A DNA stretch of 64,000 nt, from positions 73,445 through 137,444 of IMG/VR virus record IMGVR_UViG_3300042314_001189; one strand, given 5' to 3'. How positions within the stretch are numbered: position 1 is the stretch's first letter; every line of letters begins with the position of its first letter. A program made the translations under genes and the position numbers. Below the pieces are notes generated by a model that ran no database searches, was not told the origin of the DNA, and saw only the letters and a list, made by a program, of their open reading frames with translations. This document shows, piece after piece, positions 3,148 to 61,283 of this stretch. This DNA comes from a virus.

Positions 3148-3169
3148 CAGTTTAATTAATAGTTTTAAA

Positions 3170-31642: not shown

Positions 31643-32731
31643 ATGAATAAGAAAAAATTTTTAACAGAATCAGATAGAAAAAAAATTGTATCTGACAAAG
31701 AAAAAGCGATACTAGAAAGTTTTGCAAAAACTTTTAACAAAATCAAACGTATTGACGAAAATGAAGTTGCTGGTATCGAAACCAAACAGTTAGAGAAAAA
31801 AGCTTTTGATTTTGCTAATTCACCAGAAATGGGTCAATTGGTTGATAAAATTTTAGCTAATGCTAAACCAGAAGACTTACAACAAATCAAAAATGCTGTT
31901 GGTTCAGTATCTGAAGGTATGATGTGTGAAAATGATTTTTCTTCATTTTTAAACATTGCACATAAAGCACAATCAGCGTTAAGTGAAGATAACAGCGTTG
32001 GTAGTTTACAAAATAGTGTTGGTAAAGCTCTTTCAACTTTTGGTGTGGTTAATATCATGTCAATGGGTATGTTACCATCATTAGTTGGTATGGCTGTTGA
32101 CCATTTTGGTGGAACAAATTTCTTACAATCATTTAGCGATGCTATTGGTTCTGGTGGTGCAGCTGCTGGTTTATCAGTTATTGGTAGTTTAATTGGTGGT
32201 GGTTTATTATGGAGATTAGGTAAAGCTATTTCTGGTGAAAAAGTAACTGGTGATACGCCATTATTTGAAACGGATATGAACGATGGTAAAACTATTTTAA
32301 AATCAACAGACAAAGATGATTTAAAAGCAGATATTGCTAAAGAAAAAAAAAAACACCCAAATGCAAAAGTTGGGCTCATAACTAAAAATGGTAAAATTTT
32401 TAGTGTTGAAATAACCCACAATAATGTTAATGAGGGTGAAGATTATGAAAAAATAGGTAGAGAAGTTGAATACGGAATTAACCCATATGAAGAAGAATCT
32501 AATGTTAGTTTTGAACCTATGAATAATGATGAAAAAAAAATGTTATCATATGTTTCTAAATATGTTGGTAGTGAATTAGAGCTTAGTGATGAAATGGATA
32601 ATTATAGAAACTTAGGTTATCAAGGTTTTTCTGATAATGTTAAAAACGCATTAAGAAACGATATGGATTATCAAACATGGGTTCAAATGTCACATGATGA
32701 AGATACTTTTAGACGTGAAAGAGGTTTTTAA
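31643..32731 (+). CDS. putative virion protein with hydrophobic Gly-rich segment
   Basis: TATTTATA upstream; LTE/ILE/IDE/LSE/VNE motifs; central hydrophobic helices. Confidence 0.55.
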   Translation: MNKKKFLTESDRKKIVSDKEKAILESFAKTFNKIKRIDENEVAGIETKQLEKKAFDFANSPEMGQLVDKILANAKPEDLQQIKNAVGSVSEGMMCENDFSSFLNIAHKAQSALSEDNSVGSLQNSVGKALSTFGVVNIMSMGMLPSLVGMAVDHFGGTNFLQSFSDAIGSGGAAAGLSVIGSLIGGGLLWRLGKAISGEKVTGDTPLFETDMNDGKTILKSTDKDDLKADIAKEKKKHPNAKVGLITKNGKIFSVEITHNNVNEGEDYEKIGREVEYGINPYEEESNVSFEPMNNDEKKMLSYVSKYVGSELELSDEMDNYRNLGYQGFSDNVKNALRNDMDYQTWVQMSHDEDTFRRERGF

Positions 32732-32835
32732 TAAAAAAAATAAAAAAAACACAAAAAAACTTGACAAAACAAAAAAAAGTTAGTACCTTTGTATAACTTT
32801 TAAATAAGAGAGTATATTTAATAAAAGAAACAAAA

Positions 32836-32934
32836 ATGAGAACAATAAACATACATATGATTTCGATTAGTAATTGGAGACGCAATAGTCACCATACTGG
32901 TCAAGGTATGTTTAATGACATCATAGAATGGTAA
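32836..32934 (+). CDS. attenuator leader peptide 1 (MRTINIHMISISNWRRNSHHTGQGMFNDIIEW)
   Basis: Follows promoter TTGACA 32761 / TACCTTTG 32784; codons 4-20 are all I,N,H,M,S,W,R, matching downstream tRNAs. Confidence 0.85.
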   Translation: MRTINIHMISISNWRRNSHHTGQGMFNDIIEW

Positions 32935-32959
32935 AACATTTTAGATAATATTAACAAAG

Positions 32960-32989
32960 AAGCCTTGACCTAAAATCAAGGCTTTTTTT
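32960..32989 (+). terminator. attenuator terminator 1
   Basis: AAGCCTTGA cctaaaa TCAAGGCTT T-run; 5' arm GCCTTGACC also pairs with GGTCAAGGT (32899-32907) in leader. Confidence 0.85.
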
Positions 32990-33001
32990 ATGCTTATAAC
33001 T

Positions 33002-33193
33002 ATGGGAGAATTAGTAAGACCACTCGGAAAAGTAAAAGTAAAAAAGTTTAACGAAAACTTTGATGAAATAGTTGACGAGTATAAAAATAAAGCAAAAGAA
33101 ATGGGTTACAACGGTGACCTAAGATTTAAAAAAGAAAAAGGTAACATAGTAATTTTTGTTACAATAGATGGTGGCGTTAGCTCAGTTGGTTAG
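33002..33193 (+). CDS. hypothetical protein
   Basis: About 63 aa; stop lies inside tRNA-His gene. Confidence 0.45.
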   Translation: MGELVRPLGKVKVKKFNENFDEIVDEYKNKAKEMGYNGDLRFKKEKGNIVIFVTIDGGVSSVG

Positions 33194-33244
33194 AGTGCTA
33201 GATTGTGATTCTAGAGGTCATGGGTTCGACCCCCATACGTCACC
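33170..33244 (+). tRNA. tRNA-His (GTG)
   Basis: G-1, cloverleaf, loop TTGTGAT. Confidence 0.9.
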
Positions 33245-33278
33245 CAAATAGGTCTTTGATATGTTGGTAAATTAATAC

Positions 33279-33351
33279 ACGGGATTAGCTCAATTGGTAG
33301 AGTAGCGGTCTCCAAAACCGAAGGTTGCAAGTTCGATTCTTGCATCCCGTG
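33279..33351 (+). tRNA. tRNA-Trp (CCA)
   Basis: Cloverleaf, loop CTCCAAA. Confidence 0.9.
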
Positions 33352-33362
33352 CTAAAATATAT

Positions 33363-33445
33363 GGAAGGAGCCCGAATGGACGAGGACACCGCCTTGAAAG
33401 CGGCTGGGTGTAAAAGCTTTGGGGGTTCGATTCCCTCTTCTTCCG
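33363..33445 (+). tRNA. tRNA-Ser (TGA)
   Basis: Long variable arm, loop CTTGAAA, G73. Confidence 0.9.
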
Positions 33446-33516
33446 CTAAAATTAAATTATATGAAAAAAAAATTTGACATGCTTTAAGTTCTGCTAAACA
33501 ACAGACGATAAAGCAA

Positions 33517-33699
33517 ATGAAAAAAGAAACATTAAAAACAACAACAAACCGTAAAGTTTATAAAATGCTTCACCGCAAAGAACTTTATGATGAACAAGGA
33601 TTATGTCACTATTGTGGACCACATTCTGGTTGTAATTCTAATTTTAGACCAAGTTCAAATAGAAATTGGAAAATGTATCGTAAAACACAGTGGAAGTAA
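33517..33699 (+). CDS. small basic Cys/His protein
   Basis: 60 aa, CHYCGPHSGCN, NWKMYRKTQWK. Confidence 0.55.
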   Translation: MKKETLKTTTNRKVYKMLHRKELYDEQGLCHYCGPHSGCNSNFRPSSNRNWKMYRKTQWK

Positions 33700-33710
33700 T
33701 TCCACAATCT

Positions 33711-33784
33711 TGGTACCTAGCTCAACTGGTTAGAGCACTTCGCTGATACCGAAGAGGTTATGGGTTCGAGTCCCGTGGTACCAA
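33711..33784 (+). tRNA. tRNA-Ile (GAT)
   Basis: Cloverleaf, loop CTGATAC. Confidence 0.9.
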
Positions 33785-33791
33785 CAAAAAT

Positions 33792-33910
33792 TGTAGGGTG
33801 GTGAAATTGGCAGACACGCCATCTGGTCTCGATGGTGTCGATTATTATCAACAGAATTATACTTTTTGTTGATAATAATCAACATGTGGGTTCAAATCCT
33901 ACCCCTACAG
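33792..33910 (+). tRNA. atypical tRNA-like RNA with giant variable arm and non-canonical anticodon loop
   Basis: TGTAGGG/CCCTACA acceptor, Leu/Ser-type D loop, CCATC-TGGTCTC-GATGG, about 50-nt variable hairpin, T arm. Confidence 0.65.
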
Positions 33911-33913
33911 CAA

Positions 33914-33987
33914 GGTCCTTTAGCTCAGTTGGTTAGAGCAGCTCGCTCATAACGAGAAGGTCGTAGGTTCGAGTCCTACATGGACCA
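33914..33987 (+). tRNA. tRNA-Ile2/Met (CAT)
   Basis: Cloverleaf, loop CTCATAA; body resembles Ile2 (lysidine) tRNAs. Confidence 0.85.
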
Positions 33988-33993
33988 CAATAT

Positions 33994-34065
33994 TCTTCGG
34001 TAGCTCAGAGGCAGAGCACTCCGCTGTTAACGGATAGGTCGGGATTTCGAAATTCCCCCGAAGAG
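33994..34065 (+). tRNA. tRNA-Asn (GTT)
   Basis: Cloverleaf, loop CTGTTAA, G73. Confidence 0.85.
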
Positions 34066-34075
34066 CAACATATAT

Positions 34076-34147
34076 TCTCCTTTAGCTCAGCGGTAGAGCA
34101 ATCGGCTGTTAACCGATAGGTCCTAGGTTCGAATCCTAGAGGGAGAG
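34076..34147 (+). tRNA. tRNA-Asn (GTT)
   Basis: Cloverleaf, loop CTGTTAA, G73. Confidence 0.9.
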
Positions 34148-34153
34148 CAACAT

Positions 34154-34225
34154 GGCGATATAGTATAATGGTTATTACACTTGGCTCATATCCTTGAGAA
34201 GTAGGTTCAATTCCTTCTATCGCTA
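34154..34225 (+). tRNA. tRNA-Met (CAT), elongator-like
   Basis: GGCGATA/TATCGCT acceptor, loop CTCATAT, weak anticodon stem. Confidence 0.7.
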
Positions 34226-34321
34226 CACAATATCTTTGCTCGCCAAATTGGCGAGCAAATGGCGAGATAAGACAAAAAAGATGAAATTAGGGAGCTTATC
34301 TCGCCAAAATTATGATATTAT

Positions 34322-34396
34322 GCATCCATAGCTCAATTGGATTAGAGCACTCGCCTACGAAGCGAGAGGTTGAAAGTTCGAATCTTTCTGGATGTA
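34322..34396 (+). tRNA. tRNA-Arg (ACG)
   Basis: Cloverleaf, loop CTACGAA. Confidence 0.9.
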
Positions 34397-34401
34397 CATA
34401 T

Positions 34402-34474
34402 GCCCCTATCGTTCAACTGTATAGGACCAGCCCCTTCTAAGGGCTTAATGGGAGTTAGAGTCTCTCTGGGGGTA
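34402..34474 (+). tRNA. tRNA-Arg (TCT)
   Basis: Cloverleaf, loop CTTCTAA. Confidence 0.8.
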
Positions 34475-34479
34475 CAAAT

Positions 34480-34563
34480 GGAGAGTAATGCGGTATGGTT
34501 GCCGTCCTTGTTTGCTAAACAAAGGGTACCTTCGGGTATGGGATTCGATTTCTCTGCTCTCCG
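34480..34563 (+). tRNA. tRNA-Ser (GCT)
   Basis: Variable arm, loop TTGCTAA, G73. Confidence 0.85.
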
Positions 34564-34635
34564 CTTTTTGTTTATATTGTATATATATAATAATTTTTTA
34601 GTATATTTGATAAGTATTTATAATAAAAAAAACAC

Positions 34636-35826
34636 ATGAAAACAAAATTGATATTAGCCTTTGTAATTGCCCTAATAAGTTCCGTTAGAGCGCAAGTTTC
34701 AACAGATTACACATTTTCAGAAACAATTGGAACCTATGCTGCCATAACTAGTGGAACACAACTAGTAACAACAACCGCTGGTGCGACAGCATATGACACC
34801 GATGGTAGTACTATTTCACTACCAACTGCATCATATTTTACTTTTAATAACGTAACAATAACAACTGTCTATATGATGGCAGATGGTTTTTTATGGTTAA
34901 ATCCTGGGGTTACAATGGCCAACGTTAGTGGTACGAATGCTGTTACGGGGCCGATTCCATCTACAAGAGTTGCTGACGGTGTAATATCAGCCATGGGAAT
35001 GGATTTGAGAAGCACATCGTTAGCTGGTCAAGTATATGAAAGAAGATGGTATGACGATGGAATAGAAGTCATTTTTCAATGGCAAAACGCTGCAAGATAT
35101 GTACAAAGTAGTTCTGAAAGATTTTCATTTCAAATAAGAATAAATAAAACAACTGATGTTGTGCGTGTTGTATATGGAAATATGACAACGATTACAACGA
35201 GCACAACTTATCAACCAATGGTTGGTTTAAGAGGTTCAACAAATACAGATTATAATAATAGAAGATTAACAAATTCTATACCCGATTCAACTCCAAACTG
35301 GGGTCAACCAAATGGTACAACTGCTGGTACTTCAAATGCACACACTGTTAGATTTAGAAATAATTGCTTACCAACATCTGGGCTTACATTTGTTTGGACA
35401 CCACCAGTACCGTTGCCGATAGAATTAATATCATTTGAAGGTATAACAAAAAATGGTTATAATCATTTGTTTTGGAAAACAGCTAGTGAATCTAACAATG
35501 ATTATTTCACGATAGAAAAAACGCAAGATGGTATAAACTATAATACTGTTATAAACATAAACGGTGCTGGTAATTCAAACACTACATTAAGTTATGATTA
35601 TATCGATTATAACGTTGACAATACAATAAACTATTATAGGTTAAAACAAACCGACTATGACGGTAAGTATGCGTATTCACATATTATAACTTTAGACAAC
35701 ACTAGGAAAATACTTTTGGTTGTTAGAGTGGTTAATTTATTAGGTCATGATGTTGATATAAACTCAAAAGGTATTGTGATATTGATATATGACGATGGTT
35801 CGGTCAAGAAAATATTTAATGAATAA
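34636..35826 (+). CDS. secreted beta-rich protein of Bacteroidota type
   Basis: Signal peptide; PLPIELISF...WKTASExNNDYFTIEK...YYRLKQTDYDG Ig-like module; C-terminal VNLLG...LIYDDGSVKK. Confidence 0.75.
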   Translation: MKTKLILAFVIALISSVRAQVSTDYTFSETIGTYAAITSGTQLVTTTAGATAYDTDGSTISLPTASYFTFNNVTITTVYMMADGFLWLNPGVTMANVSGTNAVTGPIPSTRVADGVISAMGMDLRSTSLAGQVYERRWYDDGIEVIFQWQNAARYVQSSSERFSFQIRINKTTDVVRVVYGNMTTITTSTTYQPMVGLRGSTNTDYNNRRLTNSIPDSTPNWGQPNGTTAGTSNAHTVRFRNNCLPTSGLTFVWTPPVPLPIELISFEGITKNGYNHLFWKTASESNNDYFTIEKTQDGINYNTVININGAGNSNTTLSYDYIDYNVDNTINYYRLKQTDYDGKYAYSHIITLDNTRKILLVVRVVNLLGHDVDINSKGIVILIYDDGSVKKIFNE

Positions 35827-36571: not shown

Positions 36572-37504
36572 ATGAAAGATAAAATTAGAGAAATTTTAAG
36601 GGAGAATACCGAAAAAAATATTTTAGGTGTTGTGGTATCTAAACCAAATCAAGAATTGATAATTATGCGTGGAATTCCAGGTTCTGGAAAATCAACAAAG
36701 GCTAAATCACTTGTTGGGAAAGGTAAAATACACTCTACCGATGATGTTATTGAAGCTGGTGGTGATTATAACGAATTTTTTGCTAAAATGATAGCATCAA
36801 AAGACTTTGCACCATTAAGCCGAGTTCACTCAACCAACTTGAAAAACGCTATTGCATCTATGAAGTCTGGTGTTTCACCAGTTATCATCGATAACACAAA
36901 CATTAAACAAAACGAGTCAAAAGCTTATATTGTTGCTGCGTTGGAAATGGGTTATGCTGATAATAACATTAAATTTGTTGATATTGGTACTGCTGGGTTA
37001 GAAGCGGCTGAATTAGCTAAAAGAAATACTCATGGTGTACCATTGGATAAAATAGAAATGATGATTGCTAGTCACACAGCACAAGGGCCATTGACGCTTC
37101 AAAGCGTTTTGGAGTCAAAAGATATGTACAAACAATCCGATGTATTGTACTCTGCTGTAGTGTTGGACAACGGTTCTAAATCAGCATTGTTATCAAGACT
37201 TGAAGATATGATACCAGAAGGATGGAAAGTATTTGCTCACCACATGACAATTGTTTTTGGTAAAGGTGTTCCAAATAAAGAAGACTTGGGTAAAGAGGTG
37301 ACTTTGTATGTTGAAGCGATAGGTCTTAGCGATATGGCTATGGCTGTAAGGGTTGAAGGTTATCCATCGGCCAACGCAATACCACACATTACAATTGCGA
37401 TAAATCCAGACGGTGGTAAACCAGTGATGTCCAACGATATAACAAAATGGCAAAAAATTAAAAACTTTGCTATCAAAGGTGTTGTTACCGAAATAAAAAA
37501 ATGA
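36572..37504 (+). CDS. polynucleotide kinase-like P-loop fused to 2H phosphoesterase (RNA end-healing)
   Basis: MRGIPGSGKST, IIDNTN, RNTHGVP; HHMTI and PHITI 2H motifs. Confidence 0.8.
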   Translation: MKDKIREILRENTEKNILGVVVSKPNQELIIMRGIPGSGKSTKAKSLVGKGKIHSTDDVIEAGGDYNEFFAKMIASKDFAPLSRVHSTNLKNAIASMKSGVSPVIIDNTNIKQNESKAYIVAALEMGYADNNIKFVDIGTAGLEAAELAKRNTHGVPLDKIEMMIASHTAQGPLTLQSVLESKDMYKQSDVLYSAVVLDNGSKSALLSRLEDMIPEGWKVFAHHMTIVFGKGVPNKEDLGKEVTLYVEAIGLSDMAMAVRVEGYPSANAIPHITIAINPDGGKPVMSNDITKWQKIKNFAIKGVVTEIKK

Positions 37505-37716
37505 TGAATGAAGTCAAATTAAACCTAAAAGGGTGGGGATTGGTCTTTGTAGAGATTATGTGGATTGAAGGTAATTTATACAAAATAAAATTTGTGCCAG
37601 AAGATAACATACTTTGTGATGTTAAAACAGAAATATTTCACGTGAAAGAAATATTGAACATTAATGAAGTTTTTATTGATAAAAATTTAAAGATTACGAA
37701 GTATGATAACGAATAA
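37501..37716 (+). CDS. hypothetical protein
   Basis: 71 aa ORF. Confidence 0.5.
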   Translation: MMNEVKLNLKGWGLVFVEIMWIEGNLYKIKFVPEDNILCDVKTEIFHVKEILNINEVFIDKNLKITKYDNE

Positions 37717-38338
37717 ATCAGCACAAGTTATTTTGATAAATAAAAATGGTTTGGTGCTAGGTGTTTCTAGGAAAGATGACCATAATGATTTTGGATTACC
37801 TGGTGGAAAGATGGACCCAGAAGATGGTGACGACCCAAAAGTCACAGCTATTCGTGAAACAAAAGAAGAAACTGGTTTGGATATTACAAACCTAAGACTT
37901 ATATTTGCGATACATAAAGATGGTTTTATGGGTTACACCTATTTGGCTGATTATTCTGGTAAAATTGAACATGATGAACCACATGTTGTTAAATGGCAAC
38001 CTATGGAAGTCATGGTTAACGGTAGGTTCGGTAGATACAATCAATTGGTTGCGGAGTCTTTAAATGATATGAACATCAAATATCAATACCATGTTGATAT
38101 GAACGCATTGACGTTGGATGTAACACAAATAATTGATGGTCATTATAATGGTGAAGTAAAATTAGATTTCATCAGAAAAGAATGGGGTTATAACCATTAC
38201 AACATTTATTTTGTTGACGATAACGGTGAATTAGAAGAAACATTTGGTTTTGATAAATCATTGGATAAGAAATTAGATATCGTTTCAAAAAAATATGGTG
38301 TTAAGGTTAAGTTATCCTCAGAATATTATTGCAAGTAA
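37703..38338 (+). CDS. NUDIX hydrolase
   Basis: LPGGKMDPED...AIRETKEETGL. Confidence 0.85.
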   Translation: MITNKSAQVILINKNGLVLGVSRKDDHNDFGLPGGKMDPEDGDDPKVTAIRETKEETGLDITNLRLIFAIHKDGFMGYTYLADYSGKIEHDEPHVVKWQPMEVMVNGRFGRYNQLVAESLNDMNIKYQYHVDMNALTLDVTQIIDGHYNGEVKLDFIRKEWGYNHYNIYFVDDNGELEETFGFDKSLDKKLDIVSKKYGVKVKLSSEYYCK

Positions 38339-38373
38339 AGAATAATATTCGTATATTTGTAAAAAATAGTTTT

Positions 38374-38715
38374 ATGAAAAATACTGATAGACGTTTAGAT
38401 TTAAGCGCAAAGTTCATGCAGATGGGTCAGACCCTAATCTTAGAGGGTAGAGAAAATAGCGATATTAGTATCTCTCAAACTGGTACCATTTTAGTTTTCA
38501 TTAGTGGTTTGTTATTAGGTGATGATGAAGATATTTTTAAATTTTCAGACCTATGTTCAATGTTTTCTGCTAGAAAAATATTAGATGGTATCGAAGAAGA
38601 GGGTAGTCCTTTGAAAGGGTTGATGAAACAAGTTTCAGATGCTCAAACTTACGAAGAATTTATCAAAAAAATTAATGAAATAAGAAAAAGAAATGATAAA
38701 GACGATGTTAATTAA
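38374..38715 (+). CDS. hypothetical protein
   Basis: About 113 aa from ATG 38374. Confidence 0.55.
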   Translation: MKNTDRRLDLSAKFMQMGQTLILEGRENSDISISQTGTILVFISGLLLGDDEDIFKFSDLCSMFSARKILDGIEEEGSPLKGLMKQVSDAQTYEEFIKKINEIRKRNDKDDVN

Positions 38716-38775
38716 ACAAATATTTGTTTAATTCATTTTTATTTACTACCTTTGTCTTATTAAAGTGAAAAGATT

Positions 38776-39900
38776 ATGTTAGCAATACAAAATTATTTAT
38801 TAAAGCATGGGTTGGAAAAAACTGTGAAAGACTTTAGTTTAAAAACTAGAGAATATGAACACAAAATACTTTTAAAGTATGACCAATTGGTATCACCAAC
38901 CCTTATGGCGTTGCCAGAGATGCAAGATTGTCGTGGTATCATCCTTGAAAAAGGTACGTGGAAAGTAATGTCGATGGCATTCCGCAAGTTCTTCAACTCT
39001 GAAGAAGGGAATGCCGCTAAAATTGATTGGAATACTGCAAAAGTACTTGAAAAATTGGATGGTACTATGATACAAGTATATTATGACTGGCATGATATGA
39101 CATGGTATGCTGGTACTACTGGTACAGCAAACGGTGAGGGTGAAGTGAACAACAAAAACGGAACAACGTTTAACGATTTGTTTTGGGATACCTTGAATAA
39201 CAAATATACGTTTAATACATGTTTGTTAAACAAAGATTGCATATACGTTTTTGAGTTGACAACACCATACAATATCGTGGTTAAGCCACACGGTGAATCA
39301 TCTGCAACATTGTTGACTGTAAGAAACAGAGAAACTCTTGTTGAGTTATCTGGAAAAGACTTGGAAATGTCTGCTATATCAATAGGTGTACCATTGGTAA
39401 ACGCTTTTGATATAAATGCATCTAACGTTGGTCACTTGTTGAAAACGTTTGAAGGTATGCCATGGTCAGAAGAAGGGTATGTTGTACGTGACGGTAAAGA
39501 TAATCGTGTTAAAGTGAAAAACCCAGCATACGTTGCTGTACATCACTTGAAAGGCAAAACTGCTGAACACAACATATTGACAATCGTAAAAACTAACGAG
39601 ATAGAAGAGTTTGCAGCTACGTTCCCAGAAAGAACTGAAGAACTTTATCGTCTTAAAGAAAACTATGATGCGTTGTTGTTAAAACTTAATGTTGTTTGGG
39701 ATGAGTTGAAATTACACAGACCAAAAAATATAACAAAAGAAGAACAAAAAAAATATGCCACGGCTGTTTTTGATGTTTGTAAAAATCATAATGTTGAAGG
39801 GTTTACTGGTATGTATTTTGGTTTAGCGCAATACAAAATAAACTCTGTTGAAGAATTTTTGTTTAACTATGATGATAAAACATTATATAAAATTTTATAA
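38776..39900 (+). CDS. RNA ligase (T4 Rnl1-like)
   Basis: CRGIIL, AFRKFFN, EKLDGT, FEL, EGYVV, RVKVKNPAY. Confidence 0.85.
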   Translation: MLAIQNYLLKHGLEKTVKDFSLKTREYEHKILLKYDQLVSPTLMALPEMQDCRGIILEKGTWKVMSMAFRKFFNSEEGNAAKIDWNTAKVLEKLDGTMIQVYYDWHDMTWYAGTTGTANGEGEVNNKNGTTFNDLFWDTLNNKYTFNTCLLNKDCIYVFELTTPYNIVVKPHGESSATLLTVRNRETLVELSGKDLEMSAISIGVPLVNAFDINASNVGHLLKTFEGMPWSEEGYVVRDGKDNRVKVKNPAYVAVHHLKGKTAEHNILTIVKTNEIEEFAATFPERTEELYRLKENYDALLLKLNVVWDELKLHRPKNITKEEQKKYATAVFDVCKNHNVEGFTGMYFGLAQYKINSVEEFLFNYDDKTLYKIL

Positions 39901-39902
39901 AG

Positions 39903-40265
39903 ATGGCAATAGATTTTAAAGAAAGGTACGCTAAACTAATACAGAAAGACGAAGAACCTTTGACAGAAGTTGAGTTGGGTTATGTTAAAACTATCGAAGA
40001 CCACATTGATTCAGAGATTGAAAAGAAACTATCAACAGATAGTCGAGAAATTTGGATTGATATGGCGTATGTTAGATTTAATTATAACCCATCAACTAAA
40101 AAGCCTTTTCCAAATATGACCAATAATAGAAAAGTTTTTTTGAAAAAAGAGTTGTTGAGTCGTTATGAAAAAGCAAATTGGTCAATAAATTGGCATATTG
40201 ATGATGGATTAGACGGACCAAATATGTCTGGGGGTGATTATTTAATTTTAAAAGGTAAAATATGA
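39903..40265 (+). CDS. hypothetical protein
   Basis: 120 aa ORF. Confidence 0.55.
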   Translation: MAIDFKERYAKLIQKDEEPLTEVELGYVKTIEDHIDSEIEKKLSTDSREIWIDMAYVRFNYNPSTKKPFPNMTNNRKVFLKKELLSRYEKANWSINWHIDDGLDGPNMSGGDYLILKGKI

Positions 40266-40507
40266 GAGAAAACATTACAGCTGATTGGGCTAGAAAAACA
40301 GCCGAATCTATTTTAGGTGAAAAAATCAATAAACAAATTGATATATGCCTTACAGCAATCGAAGAAGCTGTTAAAAGAAATGAGATGGGGTGCAACATAG
40401 GTATTTATGCTGACGCTATTGTTGTAAAAGAATTAAACAAAAGAGGGTTTAGTGTAAAACAATATGACGACCAAAGAGATGGAAGTTATTTAACAATTTC
40501 ATGGTAA
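40262..40507 (+). CDS. hypothetical protein
   Basis: 81 aa ORF. Confidence 0.55.
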   Translation: MRENITADWARKTAESILGEKINKQIDICLTAIEEAVKRNEMGCNIGIYADAIVVKELNKRGFSVKQYDDQRDGSYLTISW

Positions 40508-40812
40508 TGGATTTTTTAAAAGAAATCCTTTCAAACCCATACTATTCATCTTTGATTGTTTTAGTAACTCAAATATGCATGTTATATTTGAGAACTATAA
40601 ATATTGTTTACACTACCGAACATAACATATACGGTGCAATATGGTCAAACAATTTATTTGCGATTGCATGGTTATTGTCAACATCAATTGGCTTGAATGC
40701 AATATTGACTGGTAATATTTTACCAATCATTGCTTTTTTGGTTGGTGGTAGTCTTGGGACATATTTTGGTATGAAAAAAGAAATTAAGAAACGTGAAAAT
40801 CAAAAGAGTTAA
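40501..40812 (+). CDS. small membrane protein (DUF5698-like)
   Basis: 3 TM segments, GGSLGTYFGM. Confidence 0.5.
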   Translation: MVMDFLKEILSNPYYSSLIVLVTQICMLYLRTINIVYTTEHNIYGAIWSNNLFAIAWLLSTSIGLNAILTGNILPIIAFLVGGSLGTYFGMKKEIKKRENQKS

Positions 40813-40814
40813 AA

Positions 40815-41189
40815 ATGAACAAAGAGGAACTTGAAAATTATTTGGAATCCATTGGTGGTCTTTACGATTGGAAAGGTAGAACCCACACAAAGGCTAACAT
40901 ATTTGGTGTTGGCGAAGGGTGGTATAGTTTATTAAAAAATCTAATTGAAGAACTATTGGAAATTGGTTGGGATAGACATTTGACACAATGTAAAGAAAAG
41001 TTCGGTGGATTAAGGTTTTATCTATCAACATATCCAGAAGGTTCTGATGCGATAATCTCAAAATACGAATCGTTATCATATAAGACTTGTGAAGTTTGTG
41101 GTGAAGAAGGTGTTTTAAGAAAAGCGTCTTGGTTAGCTGTTAGATGTGATGAACACTCCGAAGGTAACCCACCATACGCAAATAATTAA
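40815..41189 (+). CDS. conserved phage hypothetical protein
   Basis: GEGW...QCKEKFGGLRFY...TCEVCG...CDEH. Confidence 0.6.
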   Translation: MNKEELENYLESIGGLYDWKGRTHTKANIFGVGEGWYSLLKNLIEELLEIGWDRHLTQCKEKFGGLRFYLSTYPEGSDAIISKYESLSYKTCEVCGEEGVLRKASWLAVRCDEHSEGNPPYANN

Positions 41190-41232
41190 AGAATTATTTG
41201 GAAATCACAAAAATTATTTGTACCTTTGTAAT

Positions 41233-41667
41233 ATGAAAACAATTGAAGTTGATGGAATCATAGTAAATTATGATTTAGAAAGTCTAGCAAATGAAGTAAA
41301 TAATATTCAATATGAAATTGAGAACTTCATTGATAACCATAGAACAAGTGGTGGTAAAGGGGAATTACATGAAGATGCTCCAACTGAGGAAGAATTCATA
41401 AACCTTAGAACACAATTCGCTAACGAGATTTTGAATATTGAAGAAAGGTTACCAGAATTAATATCTGAAAATTTATTCTTAACCAAAAAAGGTATTCCAG
41501 CTAAAGGTAGACGGAGACCAATACTTATGGCACATAATGATTTTTATGTGAACGTAATAGATGAATATGACCATGACTTACAATTTGATAGACCTTATTT
41601 AAAATTAGACATGATTGGTGATAAAGAAGGTAGATTAATTATTCACGAAATGCAAACAAATTATTAA
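41233..41667 (+). CDS. hypothetical protein
   Basis: ATG 41233 after promoter at 41221. Confidence 0.55.
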   Translation: MKTIEVDGIIVNYDLESLANEVNNIQYEIENFIDNHRTSGGKGELHEDAPTEEEFINLRTQFANEILNIEERLPELISENLFLTKKGIPAKGRRRPILMAHNDFYVNVIDEYDHDLQFDRPYLKLDMIGDKEGRLIIHEMQTNY

Positions 41668-41669
41668 TT

Positions 41670-42179
41670 ATGAATTATACAGATAAAACCTACAAAGAAG
41701 CCAGAATGGTAGCCGTCAAAGCCCACTCTAACCAATCCTATGATGAAATTTTTCCTTATGAGAAACACTTAGACGATGTTGTTGATGTTTTGAAAAGATT
41801 TGGTTTTTCTGGTAAATTTATTGTTGCTGGCTATCTGCATGATGCGATAGAGGATGATGGTATATCTTACAACGACATCAAGAAACACTTTGGTGTTGAA
41901 GTTGCCGAGATGGTATTTTGTGTGACTGACGAGTTAGGTCGCAATAGAAAAGAGAAAAAAGAAAAGACTTTACCTAAAACAGCTAGTAATCCAGATGCTA
42001 TTATCCTTAAATTGGGTGACCGTATCGCCAACATTGAACATGGTGGTAAAATAGACATGTATGCCAAAGAGTATCAAGAGTTTAAAGGTGCGTTATACTT
42101 GAACACGCCATCTGATGGTAAAAAAATGTGGGAATATTTAGATAAATTATTGAAAATAAATTTGGTGGAATCAAATTAA
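41670..42179 (+). CDS. HD-domain hydrolase (Mesh1/SpoT-like, putative (p)ppGpp hydrolase)
   Basis: AHSNQ...PYEKHL, AGYLHDAIED, VTDE, LKLGDRIAN. Confidence 0.75.
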   Translation: MNYTDKTYKEARMVAVKAHSNQSYDEIFPYEKHLDDVVDVLKRFGFSGKFIVAGYLHDAIEDDGISYNDIKKHFGVEVAEMVFCVTDELGRNRKEKKEKTLPKTASNPDAIILKLGDRIANIEHGGKIDMYAKEYQEFKGALYLNTPSDGKKMWEYLDKLLKINLVESN

Positions 42180-42211
42180 TTTACTACCTTTGTATCATTA
42201 AAATAAATAAT

Positions 42212-43606
42212 ATGAAAATAAAACAAATTTTTGATGAAATCGCTGCTGAACCTGGGACAAATGCGAAAATGGATATCCTTAAAAAATATAAGGATAATGA
42301 ATTGTTAAGACGTGTATTGTATTTGGCTAACTCTAAACGAGTTAAGTATTACATCAAACGCATCCCAAGCTACGAATATTTTGGTGTTAATTACTCTTTG
42401 GAACAAGCATTGGGTATAATCCTAGCAATCTCAAATAGAGATGTTACTGGTCAGTTAGCTATCGATAAATTAGTTTTGGTTTTAGAGAATGTAGATGCTG
42501 ATGATGCTTACATAATTGAGCGTATCATTGAGAAAGATTGTAAAATCGGAATGGGTACGTCAAACATGAACAAGGTAATCAAAGGATTGATTGAAGACAC
42601 ACCTTATATGGGTGCTGTGTCTTTTGATGAAAAGAAAGCACGTAAGATTTTTGAAAAAGGTGGCAAAGGTATCTCACAAGTAAAAATGGATGGTCGTTAC
42701 TGTAACGCAATAATCCGTGCTGGTGAAGTTGAATTAGAAAGTCGTCAAGGCGAACCTACAATTGTAACTGGTGCTAAATTTGTTGAAGAACTAACACAAC
42801 TTGATGATTGTGTTTTGAATGGTGAATTGACAATGGACGGAATACCACGTTATGAGTCAAACGGTATTATCGCATCAATTATTGATATCTGTGGTAAGAA
42901 AGAAAGTAGAACAGATAAAGAAAACGAAAAGAAATTAGCTACGTTTGAAGAAAAACATGGTAATTTTGAAGAAGCGTTGAGTAAAATACGTTACACTGTT
43001 TGGGATAGAATTGGTATTGATGAATACTTTGATACAAAATCAATTGTACCATACAACAAACGTGCTATCGAGTTAAATAGAGCGTTAAAAAATATTGAAA
43101 CAACAAAAGTATCAATAGTAGAAGGGGTTGTTGTTAACAGTTACGAAGAAGCTATCAGCCATTTCCAAGAAATCTTGGCTCGTGGTGAAGAAGGTACAAT
43201 TTTAAAGTCGTATGATGGTGAATGGAAAGATGGTAAACCAACATGGCAAATAAAAATGAAATTGGAGTTAGCGTTGGATTTGGTGATTACTGGTTTTAAT
43301 TATGGCACCAAAGGTACTAAAAACGAAAACGTTGTTAGCTCTTTGAACGCTGAAACATCATGTGGTAAACTAAAAACTAGACCACAAGGTTTGACTGAAA
43401 GTTTAATGGCAGAAATAACCGAAAACCAAGAAAACTTGTTGGGTACGATTATCGAAGTTAAATGCTCTGGTTTATCGTTTGACAACACTGGTGCTTACTC
43501 ACTATTATACCCAGCTTTTAAAGGGTTTAGAGATGACAAATCAGAGGCTAACTCACTTGACGAGTGTATTGAAATACAAAATGCAGCAATAGGTTTAACA
43601 GTTTAA
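42212..43606 (+). CDS. ATP-dependent DNA ligase
   Basis: KMDGRY, LNGEL, EEGTILK, WQIKMK, OB-fold SLLYPAFKGFRDDK. Confidence 0.9.
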   Translation: MKIKQIFDEIAAEPGTNAKMDILKKYKDNELLRRVLYLANSKRVKYYIKRIPSYEYFGVNYSLEQALGIILAISNRDVTGQLAIDKLVLVLENVDADDAYIIERIIEKDCKIGMGTSNMNKVIKGLIEDTPYMGAVSFDEKKARKIFEKGGKGISQVKMDGRYCNAIIRAGEVELESRQGEPTIVTGAKFVEELTQLDDCVLNGELTMDGIPRYESNGIIASIIDICGKKESRTDKENEKKLATFEEKHGNFEEALSKIRYTVWDRIGIDEYFDTKSIVPYNKRAIELNRALKNIETTKVSIVEGVVVNSYEEAISHFQEILARGEEGTILKSYDGEWKDGKPTWQIKMKLELALDLVITGFNYGTKGTKNENVVSSLNAETSCGKLKTRPQGLTESLMAEITENQENLLGTIIEVKCSGLSFDNTGAYSLLYPAFKGFRDDKSEANSLDECIEIQNAAIGLTV

Positions 43607-43616
43607 AAATAAAAAA

Positions 43617-44075
43617 ATGAAAAAATTATTATTAGTTTTAATGGTCTTAGTTTCGGTAGAATCATGGGGTCAATGTAGTGAAAATACCTTGAATAAATAC
43701 GTTTCTTGGGGTGTTTCAATGTCCAACAACTCAGATTTTAATACTGGTTCTTACAGTTCGTTAGAGTTTGGTGTTATCTACAATGATGTAGCTGCTGGTT
43801 TGGTTTTTGGTCGTGGTAGTTTACAAGGTGTTTTTGATAAAACAGACAATATTAGAAATTATTTCTATGAGTTAAAAGTATCACCATCTTTTCCGATAGG
43901 TAAAGTATATGGAAACATTATTTTAGGTGTTGGTGGTTACATTGATACAAAGCATAACTTTATTGAATATGGGTTGGGCGTTTCTTACACGCACAAGAAA
44001 ATAGGTTATGGTGTTTCTTTTACTAATTGGGATGGTGTTGATTATGTTACCCCATCTATCACGTTTAATTTTTAA
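43617..44075 (+). CDS. secreted/outer-membrane beta-barrel-like protein
   Basis: Signal peptide, amphipathic strands, terminal F. Confidence 0.55.
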   Translation: MKKLLLVLMVLVSVESWGQCSENTLNKYVSWGVSMSNNSDFNTGSYSSLEFGVIYNDVAAGLVFGRGSLQGVFDKTDNIRNYFYELKVSPSFPIGKVYGNIILGVGGYIDTKHNFIEYGLGVSYTHKKIGYGVSFTNWDGVDYVTPSITFNF

Positions 44076-44084
44076 AAACACGTT

Positions 44085-45128
44085 ATGAAAAAAATGATTA
44101 AATTTCCGTCTATTGAACAATTTAGAACAGTTGTTTCTAATGTGAATAGACACTTCAATTTTGTTGGTTTGGATGAAAACGGTGAGGCTATTTATGACCC
44201 AACGTTACCAAAACCAGTTATCACATTCAAAGGTACTGTAAAATTACATGGTACAAATGCTTCGGTGTCATTTAACGCACCAAGTGGTATGTGGGCGCAA
44301 TCTCGTGAGAATATCATCACACCAGAAAAAGATAACGCTGGCTTTGCATTCTTTGCGCATTCAAATGAAACGGCATTAATGCGTTTCTTCCATGATGTTG
44401 CTGCTAATAACAATATTGACATGCATAAAAACACAATCACTATTTATGGTGAGTGGGCTGGTGGAAATATTCAAAAAGGTGTTGGTATTTGCAATTTACC
44501 TAAGTCTTTCTTTATCTTTGGTGTTAAAATCACACCACATACTGAAAGTGAGGAAGAATTAAAAGCTAACCCAGCTTATTGGGTTGATTATTCTTACTTA
44601 AAAAACAATGAAGTTAAAATTTACAATATTAACGATTACCCAACGTATTCAATCGATATTGATTTTAACATGCCACAGTTGGTTCAAAATCAATTATCTG
44701 AATTAACTATTGCTGTTGAAGAAGAATGCCCAGTTGCTAAAGCGTTTGGTTTTTCTGGGATTGGTGAGGGTATTGTTTGGTCTGCCGAGTTCAAAGGTAA
44801 TGTACATAGGTTCAAGGTGAAGGGCGAGAAGCACAGCTCTTCAAAAGTAAAGACGTTAGCAGCTGTTGATGTTGAAAAATTGAACTCAATCAAAGATTTT
44901 GTTGACTATGCAGTTTCTGAAAGCAGATTTAACCAAGCTTTGGAAAATGTTTTTCCTAACAATGAACCTATTGACGTAAAGAAAATGGGTGACGTTATTA
45001 GATGGGTTGTAAATGATGTTATCAAAGAAGAAATGGACACATTGGTAGAAAACCAATTGGAACCAAAAGAAATAAATAAATACGTTTCTTCAAAAGTTAG
45101 AGAAATGTTTTTCAAACAAACAGTATAA
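44085..45128 (+). CDS. RNA ligase (Rnl2-like)
   Basis: VKLHGTNA, IYGEWAG, GEGIVW, FKVKGEKH. Confidence 0.8.
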   Translation: MKKMIKFPSIEQFRTVVSNVNRHFNFVGLDENGEAIYDPTLPKPVITFKGTVKLHGTNASVSFNAPSGMWAQSRENIITPEKDNAGFAFFAHSNETALMRFFHDVAANNNIDMHKNTITIYGEWAGGNIQKGVGICNLPKSFFIFGVKITPHTESEEELKANPAYWVDYSYLKNNEVKIYNINDYPTYSIDIDFNMPQLVQNQLSELTIAVEEECPVAKAFGFSGIGEGIVWSAEFKGNVHRFKVKGEKHSSSKVKTLAAVDVEKLNSIKDFVDYAVSESRFNQALENVFPNNEPIDVKKMGDVIRWVVNDVIKEEMDTLVENQLEPKEINKYVSSKVREMFFKQTV

Positions 45129-45860: not shown

Positions 45861-47168
45861 ATGATAGTAAAAGAAAACGGTTTAAGATATGCTAAGTTAA
45901 TCCATGTATCAGTAGATAACGGAATGACTAGCAACAGTAATAAGGTGTATATAATGGAAGAGTTGCCAGATGGTCGTATCAAATGTGAATATGGTCGTGT
46001 TGGTAAATCTTTGGTCACTGAATATAAACCTAGCTCTAAATGGGATAGTGTGTTGAAGCAAAAACTATCTAAAACAAAAGGTTACACTGATGTAACTGAT
46101 TTGTTGGCAGAACCAGTTGTCGATGAAACAAAACCAACCAATAACAAAGTAGAAAACATCAAAAATGAGATTGTTAGAAAGCTGGTTGATGAGTTGATGT
46201 CGTTTGCCAACAAGTCAATCCAAAAGAACTATAAGGTAACGCAAGAAGCCGTATCGGAACAACAAGTCAATGCTGCTCAAGAAATCATCAGCAACATTAG
46301 TGGTTTAATTAAAATTGGGGTTGATATTAAACATGTTAATGACATGTTATTGAAACTTTATACCATTATCCCTAGAAGAATGGATAATGTTAAGAACCAT
46401 TTATTTGATGATATTACGGATGATAATAGATTATCAATAGCTCAAAGGTTAATCGATAATGAGCAATCAGCACTAGACACTATGGCTGGTCAAGTTGAGT
46501 TATTGAAACAGCAAAGAGAAGCTGCCAAAAAAGCTGCTGAAGCGGAAGCTGAGGGTAAAAAAGAAGAAGTTAGTGAAATCACAATATTAGACCAAATGGG
46601 TTTAACCATTGAGGTTGAAAACGATACGGAAACGCTTGAACTAATCAAAAAATTGATGGGTCCAAACGTAAATCAAATGAAACGTGTTTTTAAAGTTGTT
46701 AACAAAAAGACACAACTTAGGTTTGATAAACACATGGACAAAGTTGAAGTTAAAAAGAAAAGATTTTACTGGCATGGGTCTAGAAATGAAAACTGGTTTA
46801 ACATTTTGCAAACTGGTTTGTTAATCAGACCATCTGGTGCTGTACATACTGGGTCTATGTTTGGTGATGGTATCTATTTTGCTGACAAAGCACAGAAATC
46901 AATTGGTTACACATCTTTAAGAGGCTCATATTGGGCACATGGTGGTGATAACAAAGCATTTTTAGCGTTGTTTGACGTACATTTAGGTAAACAAAAAGAA
47001 ATCCTACATCACAACTCTAGTTGTTACTCTTTGTCTAAAAAAGTTTTGGATAAAGAAGGGTTTGATAGTGTCTTTGCAAAAGGTGGTGCTGACCTAAGAA
47101 ATAACGAATATATAGTATATGACTCAGCGCAATGTACTGTATCACATTTAATTGAAATATCAAATTAA
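45861..47168 (+). CDS. WGR-domain PARP-family ADP-ribosyltransferase
   Basis: EYGRVG (WGR-like), LYTIIP (regulatory), YWHGSR, MFGDGIYFAD, KSIGY, NNEYIVY (H-Y-E triad). Confidence 0.9.
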   Translation: MIVKENGLRYAKLIHVSVDNGMTSNSNKVYIMEELPDGRIKCEYGRVGKSLVTEYKPSSKWDSVLKQKLSKTKGYTDVTDLLAEPVVDETKPTNNKVENIKNEIVRKLVDELMSFANKSIQKNYKVTQEAVSEQQVNAAQEIISNISGLIKIGVDIKHVNDMLLKLYTIIPRRMDNVKNHLFDDITDDNRLSIAQRLIDNEQSALDTMAGQVELLKQQREAAKKAAEAEAEGKKEEVSEITILDQMGLTIEVENDTETLELIKKLMGPNVNQMKRVFKVVNKKTQLRFDKHMDKVEVKKKRFYWHGSRNENWFNILQTGLLIRPSGAVHTGSMFGDGIYFADKAQKSIGYTSLRGSYWAHGGDNKAFLALFDVHLGKQKEILHHNSSCYSLSKKVLDKEGFDSVFAKGGADLRNNEYIVYDSAQCTVSHLIEISN

Positions 47169-57640: not shown

Positions 57641-57761
57641 GATAATATTTTACTATAAATATTGTAAAAAAATAATAAAACACTTGACAAACATAAAAAA
57701 AAGTAGTATCTTTGTGTAACTTTTATAAATAATGGTATATTTAATAAAAAACAAAAAAATT

Positions 57762-57836
57762 ATGAAAACTATTAACACAGTACTTACTTTATTATTATGT
57801 TTGCTAGTGGCAGACTGGGTGGGCTATGCGTGTTAA
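57762..57836 (+). CDS. attenuator leader peptide 2 (MKTINTVLTLLLCLLVADWVGYAC)
   Basis: Follows TTGACA 57684 / TATCTTTG 57707; codons 7-16 are V,L,T,L,L,L,C,L,L,V, matching downstream Cys/Val/Leu tRNAs. Confidence 0.85.
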   Translation: MKTINTVLTLLLCLLVADWVGYAC

Positions 57837-57860
57837 AAGTTGAATACTATATAACAAGAG

Positions 57861-57891
57861 AAGCCCATCTAAGTAATTAGATGGGTTTTTT
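57861..57891 (+). terminator. attenuator terminator 2
   Basis: AAGCCCATCTAA gtaa TTAGATGGGTTT T-run; 5' arm pairs with TGGGTGGGCT (57816-57825). Confidence 0.85.
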
Positions 57892-57898
57892 GCTTTAT

Positions 57899-60972: not shown

Positions 60973-61062
60973 TAAAAAAATTTTAAAAAAAACTTGACAT
61001 TTTACAAAATAGTTAGTACCTTTGTATAACTTTTAAAAAAAACGAAATATTTAATTAGAACA

Positions 61063-61152
61063 ATGAGAACAATTAACAACATATTTGAATTTGATTTCTT
61101 CGCAGCCGAGGCCGATTTTAGCCTAGGAAGGTCAACTCATGTCAAAAGTTAA
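61063..61152 (+). CDS. attenuator leader peptide 3 (MRTINNIFEFDFFAAEADFSLGRSTHVKS)
   Basis: Follows TTGACA 60994 / TACCTTTG 61017; codons 8-19 are all F,E,D,A, matching downstream tRNAs. Confidence 0.85.
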   Translation: MRTINNIFEFDFFAAEADFSLGRSTHVKS

Positions 61153-61178
61153 CGAAACTCGTAAACAATATTGATTAG

Positions 61179-61207
61179 AAGCTTGGCCGAAACGCCAAGC
61201 TTTTTTT
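61179..61207 (+). terminator. attenuator terminator 3
   Basis: AAGCTTGGC cgaaac GCCAAGCTT T-run; 5' arm can pair with GGTCAACT (61130-61137). Confidence 0.85.
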
Positions 61208-61283
61208 GTTTAGATAAATTAAAAAAAAAGTTGTAAATAAATTTGGATATGTCAAAAATTATTTATACCTTTGTAAAAGAAAA

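Follow-up and report, generated by a model that had tools for sequence, protein, structure and literature searches.

A giant lake-water phage places a short leader ORF, written in the amino acids of the tRNA genes behind it, in front of a switchable transcription stop, so it probably makes those tRNAs only when ribosomes read those codons slowly. We analyzed a 64,000-nucleotide stretch (the window; positions 73,445 to 137,444 of the IMG/VR record IMGVR_UViG_3300042314_001189). The window contains three paralogous promoter-ORF-terminator modules, each matched to its own tRNA cluster. Relatives hold a fourth, and the four sets together split the 20 amino acids. We propose that these modules are leader-peptide attenuators of the classical kind whose output is tRNA genes.

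A leader ORF matches the tRNA cluster downstream

The leader ORF of module 1 runs from 32836 to 32934 (+ strand; 32 codons plus stop). Its 17 consecutive codons 4–20 (32845–32895) use only Ile, Asn, His, Met, Ser, Trp, and Arg, which are exactly the seven amino acids of the tRNA cluster at 33171–34564 (+). The ORF and codons reported in the first-pass annotation are confirmed. Among the other 940 ATG-initiated ORFs of 15–60 amino acids in six frames of the 137-kb record, the longest run of codons for these amino acids is 8, and the background share of the set is 0.28. (Codons 4–5 belong to an N-terminus that is shared by all three leaders in the window, so the leader-specific run is 15 codons.) The ORF stays open in 8 further distinct type-1 sequences from relatives. 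Across the four types, there are 23 distinct leader peptides, all open, of 24–36 residues.

In order, cluster 1 contains His, Trp, Ser(TGA), a 60-amino-acid ORF, Ile(GAT), an odd tRNA-like gene, a CAT tRNA, Asn, Asn, another CAT tRNA, Arg(ACG), Arg(TCT), and Ser(GCT). ARAGORN and Rfam both call His(GTG), Trp(CCA), Ile(GAT), the two CAT tRNAs, the two Asn(GTT), Arg(ACG), and Arg(TCT). Ser(GCT) is called by ARAGORN only. Ser(TGA) at 33363–33446 is not called at ARAGORN's default setting or by Rfam at gathering score, but it is called by ARAGORN with -ps90, and it is 96.6% identical to a default-called Ser(TGA) of a relative. That one of the CAT tRNAs is Ile2 and the other is Met is inferred from identity rules alone. 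Between the terminator and tRNA-His lies a small ORF (33002–33193, +) whose end overlaps the tRNA gene. Relatives of this ORF with 68–93% identity lie at the same place in 7 loci, but it has no Pfam family.

Upstream of the leader, we identified a putative promoter (32760–32791, +), with a −35-like hexamer and a −7 box of the Bacteroidota type. This 32-nt pattern has four exact matches in the window (at 23679, 32760, 57683, and 60993), while 0.08 are expected by chance. All four lie before RNA-gene clusters. (Rfam gave no family for the unannotated RNA-like stretch at 23650–24330.) No other promoter of this class lies between the terminator of module 1 and the end of cluster 1.

A similarity search against annotated phages found only tRNA-level matches and no relative. 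NCBIfam and Pfam gave no family for the secreted-looking protein encoded at 34636–35826, and so no protein-based assignment of the host.

Three modules in the window and a fourth in relatives

Module 2 (57683–57897, +) comprises a promoter, a leader ORF (57762–57836) rich in Val, Leu, and Cys, an antiterminator arm (57816–57825), and a terminator, and it lies before tRNAs for Cys, Val, Val, Leu, and Leu. Module 3 (60993–61210, +) comprises a promoter, a leader ORF (61063–61152) with 12 consecutive Phe, Glu, Asp, or Ala codons, a weak antiterminator, and a terminator, and it lies before tRNAs for Phe, Glu, Asp, Ala, Ala, and Glu. The run of 12 in leader 3 compares to a maximum of 5 in the other small ORFs. 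In leader 2, 9 of 10 codons are in its set, but the uninterrupted run is just 7, which is only in the upper tail: four small ORFs, leader 2 among them, have 7, and one has 8.

A fourth case was predicted and then found: relatives hold a fourth cluster (Pro, Gln, Tyr, Thr, Gly, and Lys) behind the same promoter type and a leader written in just those six amino acids. This leader comes in three variants with different residue order. We also searched for modules with a blind heuristic (promoter box, then an ORF, then a hairpin with a T run). In 20 of 21 distinct ORFs that are followed by at least two tRNAs, the leader's own set scores 9–13 of 13 in the best window, versus 0–7 for the other three sets. 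And in 19 of 19 module-cluster pairs from this record and relatives, every in-set tRNA amino acid is present in the leader.

We considered that the codon match and the pairings described below might be chance features of AT-rich intergenic DNA. Although leader 2 is not an outlier, and the antiterminators of individual modules fail a shuffle test in 3 of 21 cases, leaders 1 and 3 are lone outliers among 941 ORFs, a fourth case was predicted and then found, and the features are conserved across records whose coding flanks are about 70–80% identical. We consider this explanation very unlikely.

Alternative RNA structures

The terminator of module 1 (32956–32995, +) has a core stem of 32960–32968 with 32976–32984, followed by a T run. 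In all 19 distinct modules that we folded for this purpose, a hairpin of −10.9 to −17.4 kcal/mol is followed by at least five Ts. (A simple terminator scan listed the hairpin at 32960–32984 only on the minus strand; we attribute this to the A run before and the T run after the stem. ViennaRNA folds show the plus-strand terminator.)

The first-pass annotation proposed that 32899–32907 pairs with the terminator arm at 32962–32970, and this 9-nt pairing is real: its duplex energy is −16.4 kcal/mol, versus −7.6 ± 1.9 in 500 shuffles, none of which was as good. In 18 of 21 distinct modules, the ORF's best duplex with the 5' arm of its own terminator beats at least 95% of shuffles, and in 18 of 21 it starts at codon 17 or later. 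Several unrelated helix sequences occupy this position, and the antiterminator is kept through complete changes of helix sequence. The exceptions to the shuffle test are module 3 in the window copy, whose antiterminator is not better than chance (0.30–0.36 of shuffles), and two further modules (fractions of 0.18 and 0.20).

A competing local hairpin at 32893–32910 was also proposed, but it is not in any minimum-energy fold. Instead, in the terminated fold of the full transcript, segment 1 of the codon block (32846–32872) pairs with segment 2 (32895–32914), which contains the antiterminator's 5' arm: 32906–32914 pairs with 32846–32854, and 32895–32902 pairs with 32865–32872. The minimum-energy fold of 32836–32995 has −43 kcal/mol (z = −6.3). 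A competing 1:2 pairing is thus predicted, but it is longer than the one proposed. Such a pairing is present in the minimum-energy folds of all three leaders in the window. In type 1, the outer 7 pairs are kept in 8–9 of 9 sequences, but 0 of 21 predicted pairs show compensatory change. RNAalifold on these nine type-1 sequences did not recover the terminator, because the terminators do not align, so we judged the antiterminator from duplexes and shuffles for each sequence.

Segment 2 pairs with 32962–32970 instead if the terminator's 3' arm is absent or if a ribosome footprint sits on codons 1–17, and the antiterminated conformation is also far more stable than shuffles (z = −5.4). In the footprint folds, the antiterminator forms with a ribosome at codons 1–17 of leader 1, 1–15 of leader 2, or 1–18 of leader 3, and it is broken further on. 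However, with a ribosome at the stop codon of leader 1, the truncated fold still forms the antiterminator. In our model, termination would therefore depend on timing and on the 1:2 pairing.

The match is to amino-acid sets

The first-pass annotation claimed that leader 1 samples its cluster isoacceptor by isoacceptor. For leader 1 this holds: codons 6–20 sample 10 of 10 canonical tRNA species, and 15 of 15 codons are decodable. Rare codons make this work, namely CGC (1% of Arg codons) and TCG (5% of Ser codons). But the evidence for tuning is weak. If the peptide is held fixed and synonymous codons are drawn according to the phage's own usage, then the complete result arises in 0.048 of draws, and full sampling alone arises in 0.092. 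Furthermore, leader 2 has no codon that is read by its cluster's Val(GAC). In 7 of 19 module-cluster pairs, the leader uses an amino acid for which no tRNA is called within 3.5 kb. Relatives lose tRNAs without changing the leader. We conclude that the match is at the level of amino-acid sets, and we reject isoacceptor-level tuning as a general rule.

The codon block is the most conserved part of the module. Nucleotides 1–54 of ORF 1 are 95% identical among 7 orthologues whose flanks are 71–79% identical, and the out-of-set replacements fall at codons 19–20, beyond the footprint limit. Conservation of the type-1 block extends to residue order and to synonymous sites, which is more than selection on the codon set would need. 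The 1:2 pairing could explain this, although it shows no covariation. Across block columns, the alternative residues are 14 in-set and 15 out-of-set, which is above the background of 15–33%, but not strongly.

A proposed mechanism

We propose that module 1 is a ribosome-mediated transcription attenuator with four segments, the third being the terminator's 5' arm. Transcription would start at the promoter at 32760–32791, and a ribosome would translate the leader. If codons 4 to about 17 are read quickly, the ribosome would move over segment 2, or segment 1 would re-pair with segment 2 behind it; the terminator at 32960–32990 would form, and transcription would stop before the tRNA genes. If the charged tRNAs for any of the seven amino acids are scarce, the ribosome would stall on the block and hold segment 1, segment 2 would pair with the terminator's 5' arm, and RNA polymerase would read into the small ORF and the tRNA genes. 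Because the product is the very tRNAs whose codons are tested, this would be a negative feedback on decoding capacity.

We are fairly confident in this explanation. Our analysis shows the ORF, its codon bias, the terminator, the predicted alternative pairings, and their conservation. We infer that the ORF is translated, that ribosomes stall, that read-through follows and rises when a cognate charged tRNA is limiting, and that the natural signal is a shortage of tRNA rather than of amino acids. The interpretation in the first-pass annotation is thus partly supported: the attenuator and the antiterminator are supported, but not the isoacceptor-level tuning or the local hairpin as stated. Its OR-gate, in which any one shortage opens the switch, follows from the architecture, as in known multivalent attenuators, but is inference only. 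Assembled contigs from RNA libraries give only weak hints: exact contigs at 33469–33771 occur in three libraries, and one contig of a close variant spans the leader, the terminator, and the next ORF (32838–33085), but contigs cannot show a transcript (nor can parts without coverage show its absence), and DNA carry-over is possible.

We also considered that the hardware is the same but that the main signal or output differs. A stalled ribosome cannot tell a missing tRNA from an uncharged one, so the leader might sense general amino-acid starvation or charging. Or the chief regulated products might be proteins, with the tRNA genes as passengers. A conserved small ORF always lies first after the type-1 terminator. 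And in one relative (G005, a 52-kb fragment), the leader is kept with no tRNA gene anywhere in the fragment; it is followed directly by kinase-CPD, NUDIX, Rnl1-type ligase, and Rnl2-type ligase genes. The same tRNA-repair genes lie downstream of cluster 1 in the window (36572–45128). However, protein outputs would not need four different leaders that each match their own tRNA set, and leaders 2 and 4 are followed directly by tRNA genes. This alternative seems unlikely.

Similarly, each module is a complete promoter-ORF-terminator unit, so it might be an autonomous small gene or small RNA that ends at a constitutive terminator, with the peptide or the short RNA having its own function and the tRNA clusters being transcribed from other promoters. 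The conservation of the type-1 block in residue order and at synonymous sites and the leader without tRNAs in G005 would fit this view. Also, module 3 has a second promoter-like site just before tRNA-Phe, at about 61268 in the window, and relatives have it too. But this does not explain why four peptides of unrelated composition each mirror the tRNA set behind them, why composition is kept while order changes in types 2 and 4, or why a segment after the block stays complementary to the terminator arm. It also seems inconsistent with the absence of a promoter of this class between the terminator of leader 1 and cluster 1. We consider it unlikely as well.

Comparison to known systems

The mechanism of leader-peptide attenuation is described in PMC1183508. 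Multivalent leaders control amino-acid operons of enterobacteria: the thr leader responds to Thr and Ile, and the ilvGMEDA and ilvBN leaders respond to Ile, Leu, and Val. Like module 1, these have a short leader with a block of regulatory codons for several amino acids and an intrinsic terminator before the regulated genes. Their leaders are translated and form mutually exclusive 1:2, 2:3, and 3:4 pairings, which for module 1 are predicted from folds, and a shortage of any one cognate charged tRNA should open them, as we propose for module 1. In the phage, the regulated genes would be tRNA genes, so what is supplied would be the sensed molecule itself; one leader would test up to seven amino acids and ten tRNA species; the promoter is of the Bacteroidota type; and four leaders together cover the whole code. 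No Rfam leader family matches at gathering score in the window. The best hit is Thr_leader, with 21.3 bits versus a gathering score of 55 (E = 0.48), and only over the terminator.

The pheST attenuator of E. coli (leader pheM) also applies leader-peptide attenuation to the translation apparatus and senses charged tRNA, but it senses one amino acid, and its output is phenylalanyl-tRNA synthetase, not tRNAs. T-box riboswitches also attenuate transcription in response to the state of a specific tRNA, but they bind uncharged tRNA directly and have no ORF. We found no match to the T-box model in the window at Rfam gathering score, nor at E up to 1 within 32700–34700. Finally, phage T4 carries a tRNA cluster together with Pnkp and Rnl1, which repair tRNA that is cut by a host anticodon nuclease. 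In the window, too, a kinase-CPD protein and Rnl1-type and Rnl2-type ligases are encoded along with tRNAs. Leader-peptide control of the T4 tRNA genes is not known to us, whereas here a putative sensor module heads the locus. Full-text literature searches listed no paper describing such control of tRNA genes, judging from titles and the beginnings of abstracts.

Implications

The known targets of leader-peptide attenuation are genes for amino-acid biosynthesis, transport, or synthetases. Here, the product of the regulated genes would be the molecule being sensed. This bears on how phages control their own tRNA genes, and on whether any organism regulates tRNA genes by reading out decoding speed, both of which are largely unknown. 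The modules would also offer compact, programmable, codon-specific sensors.

More tentatively (we consider this somewhat less likely than not), this phage lineage may run a four-channel sensor of decoding capacity, with the tRNA genes for all 20 amino acids sorted into four operons, each headed by its own multivalent leader. Each tRNA set, and possibly the tRNA-repair enzymes behind set 1, would then be made on demand when host tRNAs run short or are cut by anticodon-nuclease defenses. This would be a self-contained homeostat for tRNA supply that needs no protein regulator.

If module 1 works as we propose, it gives a simple feedback loop on tRNA supply. It would explain why the tRNA genes of these phages are sorted by amino acid into separate blocks. 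It would also link tRNA supply to the arms race with host tRNA-cutting defenses, because kinase and RNA ligase genes sit in the same locus.

The tRNA genes and other features of the phage

The window (bases 73445-137444) is part of a 137-kb IMG/VR virus record that CheckV rates as 39% complete. Near-identical DNA is present in 14 lake-water or other metagenome runs with at least half of the sampled words. The window carries 24 tRNA genes found by ARAGORN, a tmRNA at 22750-23103 (Rfam, 66.7 bits), and a tRNA with anticodon CTA at 26565-26636 (of the amber-suppressor type, and labelled Pyl by ARAGORN). The phage also encodes a protein with a PARP catalytic domain and a PAS-domain histidine-kinase-like protein (45861-47168 and 49051-50655). 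The only hint to the host is inferential: four exact copies of a promoter pattern, described below, have a -7 box of the kind found in Bacteroidota.

A small ORF whose codons match the tRNA cluster behind it

The ORF at 32836-32934 reads as the first-pass annotation described it, so that observation holds: codons 4-20 use only Ile, Asn, His, Met, Ser, Trp, and Arg. The tRNA genes at 33171-34564 are His, Trp, Ile(GAT), two CAT tRNAs, two Asn, Arg(ACG), Arg(TCT), and Ser(GCT). A Ser(TGA) gene at 33363-33446 is called only at a relaxed ARAGORN threshold, and it is 96.6% identical to a default-called gene of a relative. Among 941 ATG-ORFs of 15-60 amino acids in the six frames of the whole record, this ORF's run of 17 residues from the set stands alone; the next best is 8. 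The match is far beyond chance.

A conserved ORF of 63-67 amino acids lies between the leader-1 terminator and tRNA-His (33002-33193 in the window). Its last codons overlap the tRNA gene, so 5' processing of the tRNA would cut off its stop codon. It has no Pfam family, and seven relatives have it at the same place. Within the cluster, an odd tRNA-like gene at 33792-33911 has a very long extra hairpin (a stem of about 14 bp). ARAGORN calls it only if introns are allowed, as Ser(GGA) with a 26-nt intron, and its anticodon loop looks non-canonical. We also noticed two adjacent strong hairpins at 34235-34310, between the second CAT tRNA and tRNA-Arg(ACG), with no ORF and no family assignment.

Similar modules precede the other tRNA clusters

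A search of the record with 32700-33170 found paralogous copies before the other two large tRNA clusters. All three copies have the same 32-nt promoter pattern, an ORF whose first five residues are shared, and a strong hairpin followed by a T run. The promoter pattern has four exact matches in the window, versus 0.08 expected. The fourth match, at 23679, heads an unannotated RNA-like stretch (23679-24317): about 550 nt with no long ORF are followed by two tRNA-Met genes (CAT). No Rfam family matches this stretch. A similar stretch lies beside the type-4 cluster of record G001, a relative (locus L039, reverse strand, about 1560-1660). A near-copy of the same promoter type, at about 22640-22670, precedes the tmRNA.

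Leader 2 (57762-57836) has 9 Val, Leu, or Cys codons in 10, and precedes Cys, Val, Val, Leu, Leu. Leader 3 (61063-61152) has 12 consecutive Phe, Glu, Asp, or Ala codons, and precedes Phe, Glu, Asp, Ala, Ala, Glu. Cross-scoring is clean: leader 1 has 0 residues of set 2, and leader 3's run for its own set is 12, versus 5 for the next-best ORF. Leader 2 alone is only in the upper tail. A second promoter-like site lies directly before tRNA-Phe (about 61240-61280), downstream of the leader-3 terminator, and is also present in the relatives G003 and G004. So cluster 3 may have leader-independent transcription.

The three sets leave out Pro, Gln, Tyr, Thr, Gly, and Lys, which predicts a fourth module. 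We brought in relatives by pattern scans of IMG/VR and by whole-record tRNA searches. In record G003, a cluster of Pro, Pro, Gln, Tyr, Thr, Gly, Gly, Lys, Lys lies behind the same promoter type. Its 33-codon leader has a block made of just those six amino acids, followed by a terminator. Two further variants, in G001 and G008, keep the composition but not the residue order. The four sets together make up the 20 amino acids.

We then ran a blind heuristic (promoter box, ORF of 15-45 amino acids, and hairpin plus T run) over every locus that we had collected. It found 21 distinct ORFs that are followed by at least two tRNAs. In 20 of them, the own set scores 9-13 of 13 in the best window, versus 0-7 for each other set. 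The exception is a 15-residue ORF that lies 1.7 kb upstream of a real leader. Seventeen distinct ORFs that were found by the same heuristic, but with no tRNA nearby, average 2.3-5.9. The one high scorer among them is the leader of record G005, which is discussed below.

Predicted alternative structures of the leader

The full leader (32836-32995) is predicted to fold at -43 kcal/mol (z = -6.3). This fold has a long pairing of the codon block (32846-32872) with 32895-32914, a small hairpin over the stop codon, and the terminator. Without the terminator's 3' arm, 32895-32977 folds at -22.7 kcal/mol (z = -5.4), with 32899-32907 paired to 32962-32970. These predicted structures are the 1:2, 3:4, and 2:3 states of a classical attenuator. 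If a 30-nt ribosome footprint is forced to be single-stranded, the antiterminator forms for A-site codons 1-17 of leader 1, 1-15 of leader 2, and 1-18 of leader 3, and it is lost further on. However, for leader 1 it re-forms with the ribosome at codons 30-33. Termination must then rely on timing and on segment 1 (in the codon block) re-pairing with segment 2 (which contains the antiterminator's 5' arm), and this is a weak point of the model.

In 21 distinct modules from 11 records, we compared the ORF's best duplex with its own terminator arm to dinucleotide shuffles. The duplex beats at least 95% of the shuffles in 18 modules, and it starts at codon 17 or later in 18. An analysis of 19 modules gave the same picture. 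The failures are the window's leader 3 (fraction 0.36) and the type-1 and type-4 modules of G001 (0.18 and 0.20). The helices differ completely between types, and also within types: one type-1 orthologue, the type-1 paralogues, one type-2 member, and one type-3 member have other terminators and correspondingly other upstream segments at the aligned position. We also noticed a diverged second copy of the type-1 module with a different terminator (locus L010, reverse strand, 2908-3834). It is followed by the small ORF and by a tRNA-like gene that is split by a 414-nt insert, which encodes an HNH-type endonuclease-like ORF.

Conservation of the codon block

Among seven type-1 orthologues, nucleotides 1-54 of the ORF are 95% identical on average (minimum 93%). 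In contrast, the promoter, spacer, ORF tail, terminator region, and next ORF are 71-79% identical, and neighbouring coding DNA is about 70-80% identical. The variable codons in the block are codon 4 (two Ile codons), codon 12 (AGT, TCG, or AAT, all in-set), codon 18 (synonymous), and codons 19-20, where the out-of-set replacements occur. Codons 19-20 lie just past the footprint limit in the folding analysis. Types 2-4 change order while keeping composition, and one type-3 variant differs by three residues, all of them in-set. Taken column by column over all types, the signal is modest, with 14 in-set versus 15 out-of-set alternatives.

The match is to sets of amino acids

The first-pass annotation had claimed that leader 1 samples its tRNA cluster isoacceptor by isoacceptor. 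Codons 6-20 do sample 10 of 10 canonical species, thanks to CGC and TCG, which make up 1% and 5% of their families in the phage's long ORFs. But with the peptide held fixed, this outcome has a probability of 0.048-0.092. Furthermore, leader 2 has no GTC or GTT codon for its Val(GAC). In 7 of 19 module-cluster pairs, the leader uses an amino acid (Met, Asn, Ile, Ala, or Arg) with no tRNA called within 3.5 kb, while in 19 of 19, every in-set tRNA amino acid is in the leader. So the leader is a superset that stays fixed while tRNA content drifts, and the match is to amino-acid sets, not to each isoacceptor.

The proposed role of the leader modules

The annotation's interpretation is partly supported. 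The reading as an attenuator is well supported by the architecture, by the fulfilled prediction of a fourth module, and by conservation of the predicted switch through sequence turnover, but the refinement to individual isoacceptors is not supported beyond the amino-acid level. The codon match, the predicted pairings, and their conservation come directly from our analysis, while the regulatory function is inferred from sequence alone. Among contigs from RNA libraries, one contig, with 6 differences in 248 nt, runs from 32838 across the terminator to 33085, and three libraries have exact or near-exact contigs at 33469-33771, inside the cluster. Contigs cannot show a single transcript, its ends, or its level, and DNA may be present in such libraries. 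Attenuation by leader peptides is a textbook mechanism (PMC1183508), but full-text literature searches on leader-peptide attenuation and on phage tRNA genes, tRNA operons, and tRNA gene clusters listed no paper that applies it to tRNA genes, as judged from the listings alone.

Record G005 (52 kb) is an instructive exception. It has the type-1 promoter, leader, and terminator at 1130-1420 (with the leader at 1239-1337 of locus L032, which is G005:C1:1-5856), but no tRNA at gathering score anywhere in the fragment. Downstream are a small Cys-rich ORF, a kinase-CPD protein, a NUDIX protein, an Rnl1-type RNA ligase, and an Rnl2-type RNA ligase. The same genes follow cluster 1 in the window, where a tRNA-repair-like gene set at 36572-45128 comprises a kinase with a CPD domain (36572-37504), a NUDIX protein (37703-38338), a T4 RnlA-family ligase (38776-39900), an HD domain (41670-42179), an ATP-dependent DNA ligase domain (42212-43606), and an Rnl2-type ligase (44085-45128). 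An RlaP-family protein is at 52413-53603. The G005 leader argues against an obligatory link to tRNA genes. It fits a wider role for the module at the head of a tRNA supply-and-repair locus, although that wider role is an inference from one case.
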